A stretch of 64,000 bases of DNA from Escherichia coli (GTDB taxonomy: Bacteria; Pseudomonadota; Gammaproteobacteria; Enterobacterales; Enterobacteriaceae), in assembly GCF_003334305.1 (NCBI RefSeq), contig NZ_QOWS01000024.1. One strand, given 5' to 3'. Each line of letters starts with the position of its first letter. The first letter of the stretch is position 1. The notes under the pieces are model-generated. The model did not search any database. It was not told where the DNA came from and was given only the letters and a program-made list of their open reading frames with translations. Made by a program: the position numbers and the translations under genes. Of this stretch, positions 6,054-27,224 are shown piece by piece.

Positions 6054-7007
6054 TTAACCTATCTCCTGTAACGCATGTCTCTGGCGTTCGACGATATTGG
6101 TCCACAAATTGTCTTTATCGTCAGTCCACAAATTAATCAGCAAGGCAAAAAAGCGTTCTGCTGCCGGAGAAAGCACGGCATCTTTGCGGCGAATAATCCC
6201 CAATGTCCGACGTATAACGGGTTCCACCAGTGGAATACCAATAATCGAAGAATAGGGCGCATGGGGCATTGCCAGACCAGGAAGCGCCGAAATCCCCAGT
6301 CCCGCCTCTACCAGTCCTAATGACGTCGAAAGATGACGCACTTCGTAAAACCAGTCCAGCTTCCAGGGCTTGTCGGCTAGCTGTTGTTCTATCAACAATC
6401 GGTTGCCGCTGGAGGAACGTACGCCAATCATTTTGTAACCCACTAACTCCTGCCATTCTACAAGCTGCTTTTTGGCCAATGGATGGTCACGCCGACAGGC
6501 CAGCACGAATGGCTCGTTGACCAGTGGGGTAAAATCAATGGATGAATTTGTGACGTTGTTCATGTTTATGCCAAAGTCTGATTCGTTACACAGCACCGAT
6601 TCCATGCAATTATTCGTGCCTTGTTCCAGAATCCGCACTTTAATATTGGGATACAGCTCATTAAATTTACCGATTGCCAGCGGTAAAAAATAAAATACTG
6701 CGGTCGGAATACACGCTAACGTCACCATACCACGATGATAAGCATTCATATCACGAATATTAAAAAGCGTTTCATCGAATTTCTTTATTAATTCCCGCGC
6801 CTCCGGGAGCAACCTTTTTCCTGCTTTTGTTAACGTAACCTTGCGAGTTTTACGCTCAAATAGTTGAATATGTAAATCTTCCTCCATCTTTTTTATTCTT
6901 CGCGTTAATGCAGGTTGCGTAATATTGAGTAATTTAGCAGCATTGTTAAATGAACTGGACTCTGCCAGTATGACAAATGCCTTCATACTTGATAATTCAT
7001 GCTTCAT
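6054..7007 (-). CDS. ybhD: YbhD, LysR-family transcriptional regulator
   Basis: N-terminal HTH (ITQPALTRRIKKMEEDL), LysR substrate domain; 317 aa if started at MKHELSS (7005-7007); start choice uncertain. Confidence 0.85.
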   Translation of the reverse strand: MKHELSSMKAFVILAESSSFNNAAKLLNITQPALTRRIKKMEEDLHIQLFERKTRKVTLTKAGKRLLPEARELIKKFDETLFNIRDMNAYHRGMVTLACIPTAVFYFLPLAIGKFNELYPNIKVRILEQGTNNCMESVLCNESDFGINMNNVTNSSIDFTPLVNEPFVLACRRDHPLAKKQLVEWQELVGYKMIGVRSSSGNRLLIEQQLADKPWKLDWFYEVRHLSTSLGLVEAGLGISALPGLAMPHAPYSSIIGIPLVEPVIRRTLGIIRRKDAVLSPAAERFFALLINLWTDDKDNLWTNIVERQRHALQEIG

Positions 7008-7083
7008 TATTACTCCGGAAAATGGAAGCGACGATTTTGGGTGGCTGGTCGTTAAAAATTTTAACTGCATTTAGCCAACTTAA

Positions 7084-7106
7084 ATTAATGAAAAAATGTT
7101 ATTAAT
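7084..7106. promoter_or_regulatory. Candidate LysR-type operator (T-N11-A palindrome) in ybhD/ybhH divergent promoter region
   Basis: ATTAAT-N11-ATTAAT read directly in sequence. Confidence 0.3.
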
Positions 7107-7190
7107 CGTTGAGCTAAAGTCATTAGAGATGCTTTGTCCTTAATGTAACCATATCGCAATAAGTTATGTTTTTAAATTGAGGGCATTATT

Positions 7191-8243
7191 ATGAAAAAAA
7201 TACCCTGCGTGATGATGCGAGGTGGAACCTCGAGGGGCGCGTTCCTGTTAGCGGAACATTTACCCGAAGATCAAACGCAGCGCGATAAAATATTGATGGC
7301 AATTATGGGTTCCGGTAACGATCTGGAAATTGACGGTATTGGCGGCGGTAATCCACTGACCAGTAAAGTCGCCATTATTAGCCGTTCCAGCGATCCGCGT
7401 GCTGATGTTGATTATCTGTTTGCTCAAGTTATCGTCCATGAGCAACGTGTCGATACCACGCCTAACTGCGGCAATATGCTTTCTGGCGTTGGGGCATTCG
7501 CCATTGAAAATGGTTTGATTGCAGCGACATCACCGGTCACCCGTGTGCGTATCCGCAACGTCAATACGGGTACGTTCATCGAAGCTGATGTGCAAACGCC
7601 AAATGGTGTTGTCGAGTACGAGGGTAGTGCCAGAATTGACGGCGTACCGGGTACTGCCGCACCGGTTGCGCTCACTTTCCTGAATGCCGCTGGAACCAAA
7701 ACCGGAAAAGTTTTCCCGACTGATAATCAGATTGATTATTTTGACGATGTCCCGGTGACCTGTATCGATATGGCGATGCCAGTCGTCATTATTCCGGCTG
7801 AATATCTGGGAAAAACAGGTTATGAATTACCGGCGGAACTGGATGCCGACAAAGCATTATTAGCCCGCATTGAATCTATCCGTCTACAAGCGGGTAAAGC
7901 AATGGGCTTAGGTGATGTCAGTAATATGGTTATCCCTAAACCTGTGCTTATTTCTCCAGCGCAGAAAGGCGGGGCAATTAATGTGCGTTATTTTATGCCG
8001 CATTCTTGCCATCGCGCGCTGGCGATAACCGGTGCTATTGCTATTTCCAGTAGTTGTGCATTGGAAGGCACCGTCACCCGACAAATCGTCCCTTCTGTAG
8101 GATACGGCAATATCAATATTGAACACCCCAGTGGTGCGCTCGACGTTCATTTAAGTAATGAAGGTCAGGATGCCACGACGTTACGCGCATCTGTTATTCG
8201 GACAACCAGAAAAATATTTTCCGGTGAAGTTTATCTTCCCTGA
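7191..8243 (+). CDS. ybhH: YbhH, PrpF/4-oxalomesaconate tautomerase-like putative isomerase
   Basis: 350 aa ORF; family assignment from memory of YbhH. Confidence 0.85.
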   Translation: MKKIPCVMMRGGTSRGAFLLAEHLPEDQTQRDKILMAIMGSGNDLEIDGIGGGNPLTSKVAIISRSSDPRADVDYLFAQVIVHEQRVDTTPNCGNMLSGVGAFAIENGLIAATSPVTRVRIRNVNTGTFIEADVQTPNGVVEYEGSARIDGVPGTAAPVALTFLNAAGTKTGKVFPTDNQIDYFDDVPVTCIDMAMPVVIIPAEYLGKTGYELPAELDADKALLARIESIRLQAGKAMGLGDVSNMVIPKPVLISPAQKGGAINVRYFMPHSCHRALAITGAIAISSSCALEGTVTRQIVPSVGYGNINIEHPSGALDVHLSNEGQDATTLRASVIRTTRKIFSGEVYLP

Positions 8244-8318
8244 AAAAATTCGTTGTCAGGATAAGGACAATCAATAAAGGACTTCTGTATGAGTCATACA
8301 GAAAGAACAGGATTTTAA

Positions 8319-9752
8319 ATGAATAAGAAATCGTTATGGAAGCTAATTCTGATATTAGCGATCCCATGTATTATTGGCTTTATGCCAGCTCCGGCAGGAT
8401 TAAGCGAACTGGCCTGGGTGCTTTTTGGTATTTACCTGGCGGCCATTGTGGGGCTGGTTATCAAGCCTTTCCCGGAACCTGTCGTACTGTTAATTGCCGT
8501 TGCTGCCTCGATGGTGGTGGTCGGTAACTTATCCGACGGTGCGTTTAAGACCACCGCCGTATTAAGCGGTTACTCTTCAGGTACCACCTGGCTGGTGTTC
8601 TCGGCGTTTACCTTAAGCGCCGCATTTGTGACCACCGGCTTAGGTAAACGTATTGCCTATTTGCTGATTGGTAAAATTGGTAGCACTACCCTGGGTCTGG
8701 GTTACGTTACGGTATTTCTCGATCTGGTACTGGCTCCGGCAACACCGTCTAACACCGCGCGTGCGGGCGGCATTGTGTTACCGATCATCAACAGCGTGGC
8801 GGTGGCTTTGGGGTCCGAACCGGAAAAAAGTCCGCGTCGTGTCGGACATTACCTGATGATGTCCATTTACATGGTCACCAAAACCACCAGCTATATGTTC
8901 TTTACCGCAATGGCGGGGAACATTCTGGCGCTGAAAATGATCAACGACATTCTGCACCTGCAAATTAGCTGGGGTGGATGGGCGCTGGCCGCCGGATTGC
9001 CGGGCATCATTATGCTGCTGGTCACCCCGCTGGTGATTTACACCATGTATCCGCCAGAAATTAAGAAGGTGGATAACAAAACCATCGCCAAAGCGGGCCT
9101 TGCCGAACTGGGACCGATGAAAATCCGCGAAAAAATGCTGCTCGGTGTCTTTGTGCTGGCGCTACTGGGCTGGATTTTCAGTAAGTCTCTGGGGGTTGAT
9201 GAATCCACCGTGGCAATCGTTGTTATGGCGACCATGCTGCTGCTGGGTATCGTTACCTGGGAAGACGTGGTTAAAAATAAAGGCGGCTGGAATACCTTAA
9301 TCTGGTACGGCGGTATTATCGGCTTAAGCTCCTTATTATCGAAAGTTAAATTCTTCGAATGGTTAGCTGAAGTCTTTAAAAATAACCTGGCATTTGATGG
9401 TCACGGTAACGTTGCTTTCTTCGTTATTATTTTCCTCAGCATTATCGTGCGTTATTTCTTCGCTTCCGGTAGTGCCTATATCGTTGCTATGTTACCGGTA
9501 TTTGCCATGCTGGCGAACGTCTCCGGCGCACCGTTAATGTTAACTGCGCTGGCACTGTTGTTCTCCAACTCCTATGGCGGCATGGTTACTCACTATGGCG
9601 GCGCGGCAGGTCCGGTCATCTTTGGCGTGGGTTATAACGATATTAAATCCTGGTGGTTGGTCGGTGCGGTACTGACGATATTAACCTTCCTGGTGCATAT
9701 CACCCTCGGCGTGTGGTGGTGGAATATGCTGATCGGCTGGAACATGCTGTAA
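8319..9752 (+). CDS. ybhI: YbhI, DASS-family (CitT/TtdT-like) anion transporter
   Basis: 477 aa highly hydrophobic polytopic protein. Confidence 0.88.
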   Translation: MNKKSLWKLILILAIPCIIGFMPAPAGLSELAWVLFGIYLAAIVGLVIKPFPEPVVLLIAVAASMVVVGNLSDGAFKTTAVLSGYSSGTTWLVFSAFTLSAAFVTTGLGKRIAYLLIGKIGSTTLGLGYVTVFLDLVLAPATPSNTARAGGIVLPIINSVAVALGSEPEKSPRRVGHYLMMSIYMVTKTTSYMFFTAMAGNILALKMINDILHLQISWGGWALAAGLPGIIMLLVTPLVIYTMYPPEIKKVDNKTIAKAGLAELGPMKIREKMLLGVFVLALLGWIFSKSLGVDESTVAIVVMATMLLLGIVTWEDVVKNKGGWNTLIWYGGIIGLSSLLSKVKFFEWLAEVFKNNLAFDGHGNVAFFVIIFLSIIVRYFFASGSAYIVAMLPVFAMLANVSGAPLMLTALALLFSNSYGGMVTHYGGAAGPVIFGVGYNDIKSWWLVGAVLTILTFLVHITLGVWWWNMLIGWNML

Positions 9753-9934
9753 ATATACTCGTCATACTTCAAGTTGCATGTGCTGCGTCTGCGTTCGCTC
9801 ACCCCAGTCACTTACTTATGTAAGCTCCTGGGGATTCACTCGCTTGTCGCCTTCCTGCTACTCGAATTATTTAGAGTATATCCATTTATTATCTTTCTGC
9901 GCACTTCACGGTGCGCAGATATCGGGAGCATTTG

Positions 9935-12196
9935 ATGATCAAGTTATCTGAAAAAGGCGTGTTTCTCGCCAGTAATAACGAAATAATTGCCGAAGAACAT
10001 TTCACCGGCGAAATTAAAAAAGAAGAAGCCAAAAAAGGCACTATTGCCTGGTCTATTCTCTCTTCGCATAATACGTCCGGAAATATGGATAAACTTAAAA
10101 TTAAGTTTGATTCATTAGCCTCTCACGATATTACCTTTGTTGGTATTGTACAGACCGCTAAAGCGTCCGGAATGGAACGTTTCCCGCTGCCGTATGTGCT
10201 GACCAACTGCCATAACTCACTCTGCGCCGTCGGCGGCACCATTAACGGTGATGACCATGTTTTTGGTTTATCGGCGGCCCAGCGTTATGGCGGTATTTTT
10301 GTGCCTCCGCACATTGCGGTCATCCATCAATATATGCGTGAGATGATGGCAGGCGGCGGCAAAATGATCCTCGGGTCAGACAGCCACACCCGTTACGGTG
10401 CATTAGGGACAATGGCAGTCGGTGAGGGTGGCGGTGAGTTGGTAAAACAGCTGCTTAATGACACCTGGGATATCGACTATCCGGGCGTGGTTGCGGTGCA
10501 TCTGACCGGAAAACCTGCGCCGTATGTGGGGCCACAGGATGTGGCGCTGGCTATCATTGGCGCGGTGTTCAAAAACGGTTACGTCAAAAACAAAGTCATG
10601 GAGTTCGTTGGACCGGGCGTTAGCGCGCTCTCTACCGATTTCCGTAACAGCGTTGACGTGATGACCACGGAAACCACCTGTTTAAGCTCCGTCTGGCAAA
10701 CTGATGAAGAAGTGCATAACTGGCTGGCGCTGCACGGTCGCGGCCAGGATTACTGCCAGCTTAACCCTCAACCGATGGCGTACTACGATGGCTGCATCAG
10801 CGTTGATTTAAGCGCCATCAAACCAATGATTGCGCTGCCGTTCCACCCGAGCAACGTGTATGAAATCGACACACTGAACCAGAACCTGACCGACATTCTG
10901 CGTGAGATTGAAATTGAGTCCGAACGCGTGGCGCACGGTAAAGCCAAACTCTCGCTGCTGGATAAAGTGGAAAATGGTCGCCTGAAAGTGCAGCAGGGGA
11001 TTATCGCGGGCTGTTCTGGCGGTAACTACGAAAACGTCATCGCGGCGGCGAATGCACTGCGCGGTCAATCCTGTGGCAATGACACCTTCTCGCTGGCAGT
11101 TTACCCGTCATCACAGCCGGTGTTTATGGATCTCGCCAAAAAAGGTGTGGTAGCAGATTTGATTGGCGCAGGCGCAATCATCAGAACCGCGTTCTGCGGC
11201 CCATGCTTTGGCGCGGGCGATACGCCAATCAACAACGGTTTGAGTATTCGCCACACCACGCGTAACTTCCCGAACCGCGAAGGCTCTAAGCCAGCTAATG
11301 GGCAGATGTCAGCGGTGGCGTTGATGGACGCTCGTTCTATCGCTGCGACTGCGGCAAACGGTGGCTATTTAACCTCTGCCAGCGAACTTGATTGCTGGGA
11401 CAACGTGCCGGAGTACGCCTTCGATGTAACGCCGTATAAAAACCGTGTTTATCAGGGCTTTGTGAAAGGGGCAACTCAGCAACCGCTGATTTACGGACCG
11501 AACATTAAAGACTGGCCGGAATTGGGTGCGCTGACTGACAATATCGTCCTGAAAGTGTGCTCGAAGATCCTCGACGAAGTGACCACCACCGACGAACTGA
11601 TTCCTTCCGGTGAAACCTCTTCTTATCGTTCAAATCCGATTGGTCTGGCGGAGTTTACCCTGTCACGCCGCGATCCCGGTTATGTTGGCAGAAGTAAAGC
11701 GACTGCTGAGCTGGAAAATCAGCGTCTGGCGGGGAATGTCAGCGAGCTGACAGAGGTGTTTGCGCGCATTAAGCAGATTGCTGGTCAGGAGCATATTGAT
11801 CCGCTGCAAACTGAAATTGGCAGCATGGTATATGCGGTGAAACCAGGCGATGGTTCTGCGCGTGAACAGGCGGCGAGCTGCCAGCGTGTGATTGGCGGTC
11901 TGGCGAATATTGCCGAAGAGTACGCGACTAAACGCTACCGTTCTAACGTCATCAACTGGGGGATGTTACCGCTGCAGATGGCGGAAGTGCCAACCTTTGA
12001 AGTGGGGGATTACATTTACATCCCTGGCATTAAAGCGGCGCTGGATAATCCGGGTACGACGTTTAAAGGTTATGTGATCCATGAAGATGCGCCGGTAACG
12101 GAAATTACGCTCTATATGGAAAGTCTGACTGCTGAAGAGCGCGAGATTATCAAGGCGGGTAGTTTGATTAACTTCAATAAAAACCGTCAGATGTAA
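9935..12196 (+). CDS. ybhJ: YbhJ, aconitase-family protein of unknown substrate
   Basis: 753 aa from MIKLSEKG; aconitase-like motifs CGPCFG and SIRHTTRNF present. Confidence 0.88.
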
Positions 12197-12202
12197 AAAG
12201 CG

Positions 12203-12418
<216 letters not shown>

Positions 12419-12429
12419 GTTAATTGCTC

Positions 12430-27068: not shown

Positions 27069-27224
27069 TACTAAAAACGACACTTAACAAGTACCAGGTA
27101 TAAAATACGCCTTATGGCGAGCGGAAGCGTTTTCCGTATCCATAAATACAAAAGTATTTTGTATGCGTGGTTTTAAATTTATTGATGGTGAATATTAATA
27201 TTTTTTCTAAGGACAACTAAAAGA

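Follow-up and report, generated by a model that had tools for sequence, protein, structure and literature searches.

The ybhD/ybhHIJ cluster of Escherichia coli occupies a 6.1-kb stretch of the chromosome, which lies within the 64,000 nucleotides of DNA analyzed here (the window) and matches several E. coli genomes at 100% identity. Long open reading frames (ORFs) were found exactly where the original prediction had placed a regulator gene, ybhD, divergent from the co-oriented ybhH, ybhI, and ybhJ. Its assignment of the four products to the LysR, PrpF, DASS, and aconitase families is borne out by profile matches far beyond chance.

6054–7007, minus strand: ybhD, LysR-type regulator of 317 amino acids as in the K-12 annotation, divergent from ybhH.
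7191–8243, plus strand: ybhH, short-form PrpF-family allylic isomerase of 350 amino acids.
8319–9752, plus strand: ybhI, DASS-family anion transporter of 477 amino acids.
9935–12196, plus strand: ybhJ, four-domain aconitase-family Fe-S (de)hydratase of 753 amino acids.

The counterpart of the cluster in E. coli K-12 is b0768–b0771, with pgl on one side and ybhC on the other. At least 80% of the cluster stretch is present in one piece in 5316 of 5426 complete E. coli genomes (98%). The genes and the cluster are already annotated and known, the grouping having been described in 2022; what is proposed below for their function is not established in the literature searched. The earlier statement that no substrate had been assigned holds for experiments, but three proposals exist: a name given by the Prokaryotic Genome Annotation Pipeline (PGAP), a link to L-malate (PMC9068703), and a listing among homologues of TarA (PMC11495376). 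No convincing terminator was seen between ybhH, ybhI, and ybhJ, and a consensus scan for promoters and terminators gave no more sites than in shuffled sequences.

We propose that the ybhD/ybhHIJ genes form an inducible module that takes up an aconitate isomer and funnels it into central metabolism. The isomer would most likely be trans-aconitate of plant origin; in some grasses, trans-aconitate makes up several percent of the dry weight (PMC11495376). We regard the case for this proposal as evenly balanced. In the proposed pathway, YbhD would bind a box with the pattern ATTAAT-N11-ATTAAT and hold ybhH and the downstream genes off until an effector appears. YbhI would import the tricarboxylate, probably in exchange for an internal dicarboxylate. 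YbhH would then convert trans-aconitate to cis-aconitate by a 1,3-allylic proton shift, a chemistry known from TarA, TbrA, PrpF, and LigU. YbhJ, acting as a [4Fe-4S] aconitase-type hydratase, would convert cis-aconitate to citrate or isocitrate, as its catalytic residues and the neighborhoods of its homologues suggest. These products could enter the tricarboxylic acid (TCA) cycle or, under anaerobic conditions, go to citrate lyase. The general idea of an uptake-and-conversion module, put forward in the original prediction, is supported by the evidence that follows.

YbhH covers the whole Pfam PrpF model (E=4e-168), and its crystal structure has been deposited (PDB 6OTV, as 'putative isomerase YbhH'). 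Residues K59 and C93 do not vary among the 16 PrpF-family sequences compared, and the catalytic equipment of YbhH is intact as judged by alignment. Aconitate isomerases are established within the PrpF family, namely TarA, TbrA, and PrpF itself (PMC11495376, PMC5690661). The YbhH orthologues of Escherichia albertii and Shigella share ~40% identity with TarA, a proven aconitate isomerase (PMC11495376, Table S6), and a 2024 survey counts the orthologues of E. albertii, Shigella, Edwardsiella tarda, Klebsiella aerogenes, and Dickeya as TarA homologues (37–41%; PMC11495376). YbhH is also 41% identical over its full length to a PrpF protein encoded on a Bacillus thuringiensis plasmid; this protein has a DMT exporter as its partner and is probably TbrA.

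The nearest relatives of YbhH outside the enterobacteria are 62–64% identical and occur in Pseudomonas and Dickeya, in each case with a YbhD orthologue alongside (54% identical to YbhD over its full length in Pseudomonas and 60% in Dickeya), so that the pair as a whole is conserved at 54–64% identity. In Pseudomonas, the LysR gene is divergent and the YbhH-like gene precedes those for two transporters, of SDF and CitMHS type, and for an OprD porin. In Dickeya, the YbhH-like gene is followed by an MFS transporter gene, a gene of the fumarylacetoacetate (FAA) hydrolase family, and citCDEF. A conserved regulator-isomerase pair with interchangeable carboxylate transporters is what marks a substrate requiring nothing beyond uptake and a single isomerization to enter central metabolism, and trans-aconitate would fit this pattern. 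The possibility that YbhH is PrpF proper (2-methylaconitate isomerase) was considered and rejected, as YbhH scores 187 bits on TIGR02334 against a cut-off of 440.55 and has no prp genes nearby, unlike the Ralstonia protein.

YbhJ matches the Pfam families Aconitase (PF00330, E=6e-88) and Aconitase_C (PF00694, E=6e-6), and scores 1541 bits on an NCBIfam model of its own (NF008503), which is named 'hydratase'. The ORF may start at a GTG at 9911 (761 amino acids), but homologues support the shorter start that yields 753 amino acids. The aconitase-type motifs that had been noticed in YbhJ, CGPCFG and SIRHTTRNF, were both located, and all three Fe-S cysteines (C360, C421, and C424), whose loss had been named as grounds for abandoning the idea, are present.

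11012–11014, plus strand: codon of Cys360, the first Fe-S ligand (Cys358 in pig aconitase by HMMER alignment; invariant in 81 of 81 homologues).
11195–11212, plus strand: CGPCFG, YbhJ residues 421–426, with Cys421 and Cys424 as second and third Fe-S ligands.
11243–11269, plus strand: SIRHTTRNF, YbhJ residues 437–445, with Arg443 equivalent to pig Arg447; Arg448 lies just beyond.

The three cysteines align with C358, C421, and C424 of the pig enzyme and are invariant in the entire set of 81 distinct family members, which range from 40 to 97% identity. By HMMER alignment, YbhJ also keeps the equivalents of pig His101, His147, Asp165, Ser166, His167, Glu262, Arg447, Arg452, Ser642, and Arg644. 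Across the 81 members, H93, H131, D149, S150, H151, and E246 of YbhJ are invariant or nearly so (H93, the equivalent of His101, is kept in 80), as are R443, R448, D553, R565, S641, and R643. These catalytic residues are common as well to 650-amino acid aconitases of canonical type encoded at some of the same loci. We take D553 and R565 to be the equivalents of pig Asp568 and Arg580 on the basis of the TTDHIS...R motif of the pig enzyme. Arg580 of aconitase binds the third carboxylate. The TTD...R segment was not aligned in a phmmer search of the YbhJ C-terminus against the PDB, and the equivalence of R565 and Arg580 stays presumptive.

An AlphaFold model of YbhJ, built on 40 sequences, has a mean predicted local distance difference test score (pLDDT) of 89 and a predicted template modeling score (pTM) of 0.89. 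It superimposes over its full length on mitochondrial aconitase (7ACN) with a template modeling (TM) score of 0.77, and the fit to AcnA and IRP1 is poorer. As far as alignment and model go, the catalytic equipment of YbhJ is intact. Comparison of YbhJ with AcnD and aconitase X, which had been proposed earlier, was negative for both: the AcnD model (cut-off 1420 bits) gives YbhJ 63 bits, no AcnX Pfam domain is present, and the TM score to AcnX structures is 0.35.

The YbhJ family is small, with a handful of full-length clusters at 50% identity. In a scan of one genome per species, homologues were found mostly in gut and rumen anaerobes, with 60–72% identity to the E. coli protein. The hosts include Lachnospiraceae (Enterocloster, Blautia, Butyrivibrio, and Oribacterium), Collinsella, Megasphaera, Synergistales, and Erysipelotrichaceae. 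For the neighboring genes, ORFs were called in all loci and clustered, and the recurrent ones were named by NCBIfam. A gene for citrate synthase, an isocitrate dehydrogenase (IDH)-like protein, or citrate lyase lies within four genes of the YbhJ homologue in 19 of 74 non-enterobacterial loci; many of the remaining loci in this set are short contigs. The neighboring citrate synthase scores 590 bits (cut-off 426), and the 332-amino acid IDH-like protein falls just under its cut-offs. Of the full citrate lyase set, CitD, CitF, CitX, and CitC exceed their cut-offs, and CitE and CitG fall just short. One locus (L014) has tightly spaced genes for a YbhJ-like protein, citrate synthase, and an IDH-like protein, which is the arrangement expected for the aconitase of an oxidative TCA branch. 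Because homologues adjoin genes for citrate synthase, IDH-like proteins, and citrate lyase, the neighborhoods argue that the YbhJ family acts on citrate, cis-aconitate, and isocitrate, and this is the strongest argument available for that substrate range. The Collinsella homologues, located among dnaK, dnaJ, and clpB, say nothing about the substrate.

Three firmicute loci combine genes for a LysR regulator, a PrpF protein, a CitMHS-type transporter, and a YbhJ-like protein. In Oribacterium (L051), the LysR gene is divergent from genes for PrpF, a CitMHS/MatC-type transporter, the YbhJ-like protein, and CitD, E, F, X, and G, with CitC farther on. The order is LysR, YbhJ-like, PrpF, transporter, CitD, and CitE in the second (L080) and LysR, YbhJ-like, PrpF, and transporter in the third (L082). 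These modules rebuild the E. coli design from unrelated parts, and may be read as a pathway of uptake, trans-to-cis isomerization, hydration to citrate, and cleavage by citrate lyase.

A second type of firmicute cluster was also seen (L031, 8567–15872; L008, 2199–12202; and L017, 4741–12432). It has genes for a 650-amino acid aconitase, an IDH-like protein of 390 amino acids, and a diverged YbhJ paralogue (40–48%), the last being absent from L017. A PrpF gene is present in L031 and L008, a gene resembling those for RraA and 4-carboxy-4-hydroxy-2-oxoadipate (CHA) aldolase in L031 and L017, and a GltD-like oxidoreductase gene in L017. These clusters may form a pathway that handles another tricarboxylate.

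YbhD matches many LysR models in a profile search. Its ORF extends to 7070 (338 amino acids from an ATG at 7070), and the K-12 annotation has 317 amino acids. RNA sequencing (RNA-seq) together with chromatin immunoprecipitation with exonuclease digestion (ChIP-exo) has identified YbhD as a repressor of ybhH and ybhI, with ybhH strongly up in a ybhD deletion strain by RNA-seq and no fold-change given for ybhJ in the supplement (PMC9068703). The same study reported an L-malate-dependent growth phenotype of the ybhD mutant as well as control by Nac, and suggested that the cluster is linked to L-malate (PMC9068703). The spacer between ybhD and ybhH contains two conserved blocks.

7084–7106, both strands: candidate YbhD operator, ATTAAT-N11-ATTAAT, a palindromic LysR-type box.
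7117–7129, plus strand: second conserved spacer block, AAAGTCATTAGAG, from the enterobacterial spacer alignment.

Within the spacer, no block is better conserved in Escherichia, Citrobacter, and Edwardsiella than the ATTAAT box, which is partly kept in Klebsiella and present in the orthologous spacer of Dickeya. The box pattern has three matches in the window (7084–7106 on both strands and 27177–27199), as compared with 0.03 in shuffled sequences. The match at 27177–27199, which lies outside the cluster, is the sole other match in the window to ATTAAT-N11-ATNAAT. The Dickeya spacer also has a block resembling AAAGTCATTAGAG, namely GACATTAGAG; this second block may be a promoter or activation-site element.

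YbhI scores 553.5 bits on the DASS model TIGR00785 (cut-off 198.6) over residues 23–468. It aligns end to end, at 33% identity, with CitT, the citrate:succinate antiporter with which E. coli ferments citrate. Its nearest relatives of solved structure are the chloroplast dicarboxylate exchangers DiT1 and DiT2 and two bacterial entries (6WTW and 6WU1), which were deposited as 'DASS family sodium-coupled anion symporter'. Because YbhI is a full-length homologue of CitT and has DiT1 and DiT2 among its nearest solved relatives, its sequence suggests exchange rather than symport. We speculate that such exchange may underlie the malate-dependent phenotype of the de-repressed ybhD mutant. Inside ybhI, a weak Rfam match to the Yersinia antisense small RNA Ysr283 (8784–9035, minus strand; 38 bits against a gathering threshold of 58) is probably a mere similarity of the underlying gene.

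Repeats of other kinds lie on either side of ybhJ.

9758–9881, unstranded: enterobacterial repetitive intergenic consensus/intergenic repeat unit (ERIC/IRU), inserted in the ybhI-ybhJ spacer (9753–9934) and not part of the mechanism.

The ybhI-ybhJ spacer is long in E. coli because of this insertion, and is ~71–76 nucleotides in Citrobacter and Edwardsiella, which lack the repeat. What we take to be both ERIC primer sequences can be recognized in the spacer, and the repeat has a weak match to Rfam V_AS5 and a median of five copies per E. coli genome by megablast. The interval between ybhJ and ybhC contains an array of repetitive extragenic palindromes in a bacterial interspersed mosaic element (REP/BIME; 12199–12427), one copy of which scores 59.4 bits on Rfam naRNA4 (nucleoid-associated RNA 4; gathering threshold 59.5).

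E. albertii, Citrobacter, Edwardsiella hoshinae, E. tarda, and K. aerogenes all have the four genes together, with their order unchanged. Co-conservation had been named as a check on the original prediction, and the genes were found to travel jointly into three unrelated chromosomal contexts, those of Escherichia, K. aerogenes, and Edwardsiella. The Escherichia cluster is flanked by pgl and ybhC. In K. aerogenes, the cluster follows rihC and is beside the citrate-fermentation genes citAB, oadGAB, citS, and citC; at this locus (L001), positions 12356–22286 carry a second LysR gene followed by citB, citA, oadB, oadA, oadG, citS, and citC. An additional transporter gene is inserted in the ybhI-ybhJ interval of K. 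aerogenes (L001, 8683–9945). It was considered as a homologue of the firmicute CitMHS-type transporter gene, which was rejected, as the product is a second DASS protein. In E. tarda, the cluster is beside phage-related genes, and the ybhI orthologue is split, with tblastn pieces at 8483–9133 and 9196–9912 of the locus (L003) and no gene called; ybhI is a probable pseudogene there, and ybhD, ybhH, and ybhJ are intact. By gene, the Edwardsiella clusters are 79–93% identical to that of E. coli and the Klebsiella cluster 64–78%, which runs against the species phylogeny. The ybhD-ybhH end of the cluster (6500–7500 of the window) has 39–43% G+C, and the identity of YbhJ to clostridial proteins reaches 72%. 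The greater closeness of Edwardsiella than Klebsiella, the G+C content of this end, and the clostridial likeness of YbhJ together suggest that the four-gene unit moves laterally among gut bacteria.

A number of observations weigh against the assignment of aconitate as the substrate. The literature searched contains no biochemical or growth test of YbhH, YbhI, or YbhJ, and a search for fitness data on trans-aconitate likewise found nothing. The reported control by Nac and the L-malate phenotype do not point to aconitate. YbhH exceeds the cut-off of an equivalog model for 4-oxalomesaconate (OMA) tautomerase (NF033377, 515 against 440 bits) and is slightly closer to GalD and LigU (44–50% identity) than to the TbrA-like protein (41%), which is itself identified as TbrA by its context of PrpF and DMT-transporter genes, with no accession match. 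YbhJ has been called catalytically inactive (PMC4054840). Most firmicute YbhJ homologues do not adjoin a PrpF gene. AcnA and AcnB are already present in E. coli, and neither the Pseudomonas nor the Dickeya module includes a YbhJ. The environment of the predicted YbhJ cluster is altered as well. The family has Cys92 for Asp100, Val242 for Asn258, and Thr442 for Asn446 of the pig enzyme, C-(S/A)-G rather than C-T-N after the first ligand (S361-G362), and mostly Ala for Ser643 (A642).

These replaced positions (C92, V242, S361-G362, T442, and A642) span ~10208–11860 of the window. The co-resident 650-amino acid aconitases of PRK07229 type retain the usual residues at all four positions resolved in the alignment, in which the Asp100 column is shifted. 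YbhJ also scores below every curated aconitase cut-off (for example, 343 against 612 bits on PRK07229), and by these sequence measures it is not a standard aconitase. The experiment cited for an inactive YbhJ, in work by Blank from 2002, reportedly showed only that inactivation of ybhJ left the residual aconitase activity of an acnAB strain unchanged; ybhJ was probably repressed in that strain. Expression of ybhJ was induced 18-fold with algal biomass as nutrient source (PMC10972114). The location of the K. aerogenes cluster beside citrate-fermentation genes counts for aconitate. trans-Aconitate is a competitive inhibitor of aconitase (PMC11495376), and therefore a YbhJ that is tolerant or expressed anaerobically is an attractive idea.

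An unlikely alternative is that the module handles another unsaturated carboxylate, such as methyl- or homo-aconitate, hydroxy-aconitate, or a dicarboxylate of the itaconate/methylitaconate type, again by an isomerase followed by an aconitase-type hydratase. The precedent is the pair of Mii isomerase and dimethylmalate dehydratase in nicotinate fermentation: 3-methylitaconate isomerase (PDB 3G7K) matches YbhH with E=2e-67, and some databases call YbhJ homologues '2,3-dimethylmalate dehydratase large subunit'. A dedicated hydratase beside AcnA and AcnB would be easier to explain if the product were not a substrate of the housekeeping aconitases. The altered active-site shell of YbhJ is consistent with this, and the diverged paralogues in the second type of firmicute cluster suggest that the family spans several substrates. 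Opposed to this are the invariance of R565, which we presume to be the third-carboxylate binder Arg580, and the citrate-specific character of the neighbors, namely citrate synthase and citrate lyase genes. In addition, the cluster encodes no lyase or CoA-transferase for such products.

An improbable alternative, which we nonetheless considered seriously, is that the substrate is OMA or a related oxo-tricarboxylate released when gallate or protocatechuate is degraded. YbhH would in this case be an isomerase of LigU/GalD type, converting OMA to 2-keto-4-carboxy-3-hexenedioate (KCH), and YbhJ would replace LigJ/GalB in forming CHA. PGAP does name YbhH '4-oxalomesaconate tautomerase' in all eight E. 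coli records listed for the cluster, because YbhH exceeds the equivalog cut-off noted above, and the LigU, FldA, and GalD proteins to which YbhH is 44–50% identical come from genuine protocatechuate or gallate clusters. The reaction is also chemically parallel, since OMA and KCH appear from their structures to be oxalyl analogues of trans- and cis-aconitate, and the RraA/CHA-aldolase-like genes of L031 and L017 occur with PrpF or aconitase-like genes. We down-weighted this alternative on gene context and on the tree of the family. In a neighbor-joining tree of 16 sequences, calculated without bootstrap, the YbhH clade forms a branch apart from LigU, FldA, and GalD, and 22 alignment positions are fixed differently between this clade and the LigU/GalD group. 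The true FldA and GalD loci carry genes for a ring-cleavage dioxygenase, OMA/KCH hydratase, and CHA aldolase; no ring-cleavage dioxygenase, OMA hydratase, or aldolase gene was found near the YbhH-like genes in the Pseudomonas or Dickeya loci examined. More broadly, lig/gal partner genes are absent around ybhH in the E. coli, Klebsiella, Edwardsiella, Pseudomonas, and Dickeya contexts, with no LigJ/GalB, LigK/GalC, or 2-pyrone-4,6-dicarboxylate (PDC) hydrolase gene near the clade members examined and no aldolase gene in or beside the E. coli cluster. The nearest YbhJ homologues adjoin citrate enzymes instead. Because the YbhD/YbhH pair never adjoins the lignin or gallate genes of the true isomerases, the tautomerase name is probably wrong.

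Still less probable is a cryptic cluster, or a dead YbhJ with a regulatory or stress role and YbhHI handling a dicarboxylate (L-malate) under nitrogen control: the L-malate phenotype and Nac control (PMC9068703), the split ybhI of E. tarda, the replacement of Asp100 by Cys, and the description of YbhJ as inactive, along with H2O2 sensitivity and low NADPH in a ybhJ deletion mutant (PMC4054840), are outweighed by retention of the cluster in 98% of complete E. coli genomes, by the embedding of YbhJ homologues in citrate synthase/IDH-like and citrate lyase operons, and by the Fe-S ligands and catalytic Ser, His, and Arg residues, whose (near) invariance across phyla at 40–97% identity makes a dead YbhJ unlikely.

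Returning to aconitate as the substrate, a broader proposal can be made for YbhJ-type proteins, which we put forward tentatively and with somewhat less than even confidence. These proteins may be a distinct, laterally spread class of working aconitases in gut and rumen bacteria, with a remodeled cluster environment (Cys for Asp100 and loss of the Asn shell). They could provide many anaerobes with the aconitase of their TCA branch and, joined to a PrpF isomerase and a transporter, form the center of a fermentative route from trans-aconitate to citrate that ends in citrate lyase.

If the trans-aconitate pathway is correct, it would provide a function for four remaining y-genes of the best-studied bacterium, a third functional aconitase in E. 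coli, and a complete and so far unrecognized pathway for a major plant acid. It would also correct the misnomer '4-oxalomesaconate tautomerase' in thousands of genomes, 5316 complete genomes carrying the cluster. Reduction of trans-aconitate to tricarballylate in the rumen is linked to grass tetany, and a widespread gut and rumen route from trans-aconitate to citrate would have consequences for the ecology of the gut and for the nutrition of animals. The hypothesis, which covers the four y-genes and a protein family widespread in gut bacteria, is directly testable with commercially available substrates.

The components of the cluster resemble those of several known systems. CitT, TtdT, and the plant DiT proteins are known exchangers, and YbhI is likened to them by sequence, through its full-length identity to CitT and the presence of DiT1 and DiT2 among its best solved relatives. 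YbhJ has the four domains of mitochondrial-type aconitase (the pig and bovine enzymes; PRK07229) in the same order, the three Cys ligands, and the catalytic set of Ser, His, Asp, Glu, and Arg, and shares its fold (TM 0.77), but is only 21% identical and is altered at the Asp100, Asn258, Asn446, C-T-N, and Ser643 positions. The AcnD and PrpF proteins of the 2-methylcitrate cycle in Shewanella and Ralstonia likewise join an aconitase-family Fe-S dehydratase to a PrpF-family isomerase, which corrects the double-bond geometry (PMC5690661). The ybh proteins score far below the models for both (63 against 1420 bits for YbhJ and 187 against 440 for YbhH), the cluster has no prpB or prpC beside it, and the order of reactions is probably reversed, with the isomerase first. 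LigU and GalD share with YbhH the short-form PrpF fold, the conserved Lys and Cys pair, 44–50% identity, and the 1,3-allylic shift, whereas YbhH sits on a separate branch, has no lig/gal partner genes, and differs at the 22 fixed positions.

The system most similar in logic is TarR/TarA/TarB of Bacillus velezensis (PMC11495376), in which a LysR-type transcriptional regulator (LTTR) gene likewise stands beside genes for a PrpF isomerase and an importer, and the substrate is imported, isomerized, and fed to the TCA cycle; orthologues of YbhH are ~40% identical to TarA. The two differ in the transporter, YbhI being a DASS protein and TarB an MFS importer, although the orthologous Dickeya module does carry an MFS gene. 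They differ also in regulation, since TarR activates and YbhD, judged by RNA-seq, represses, and the E. coli cluster has the additional aconitase-family gene ybhJ. By analogy, the E. coli cluster would be a variation on the trans-aconitate assimilation design, set apart by a putative DASS exchanger and a dedicated, atypical aconitase-family hydratase.

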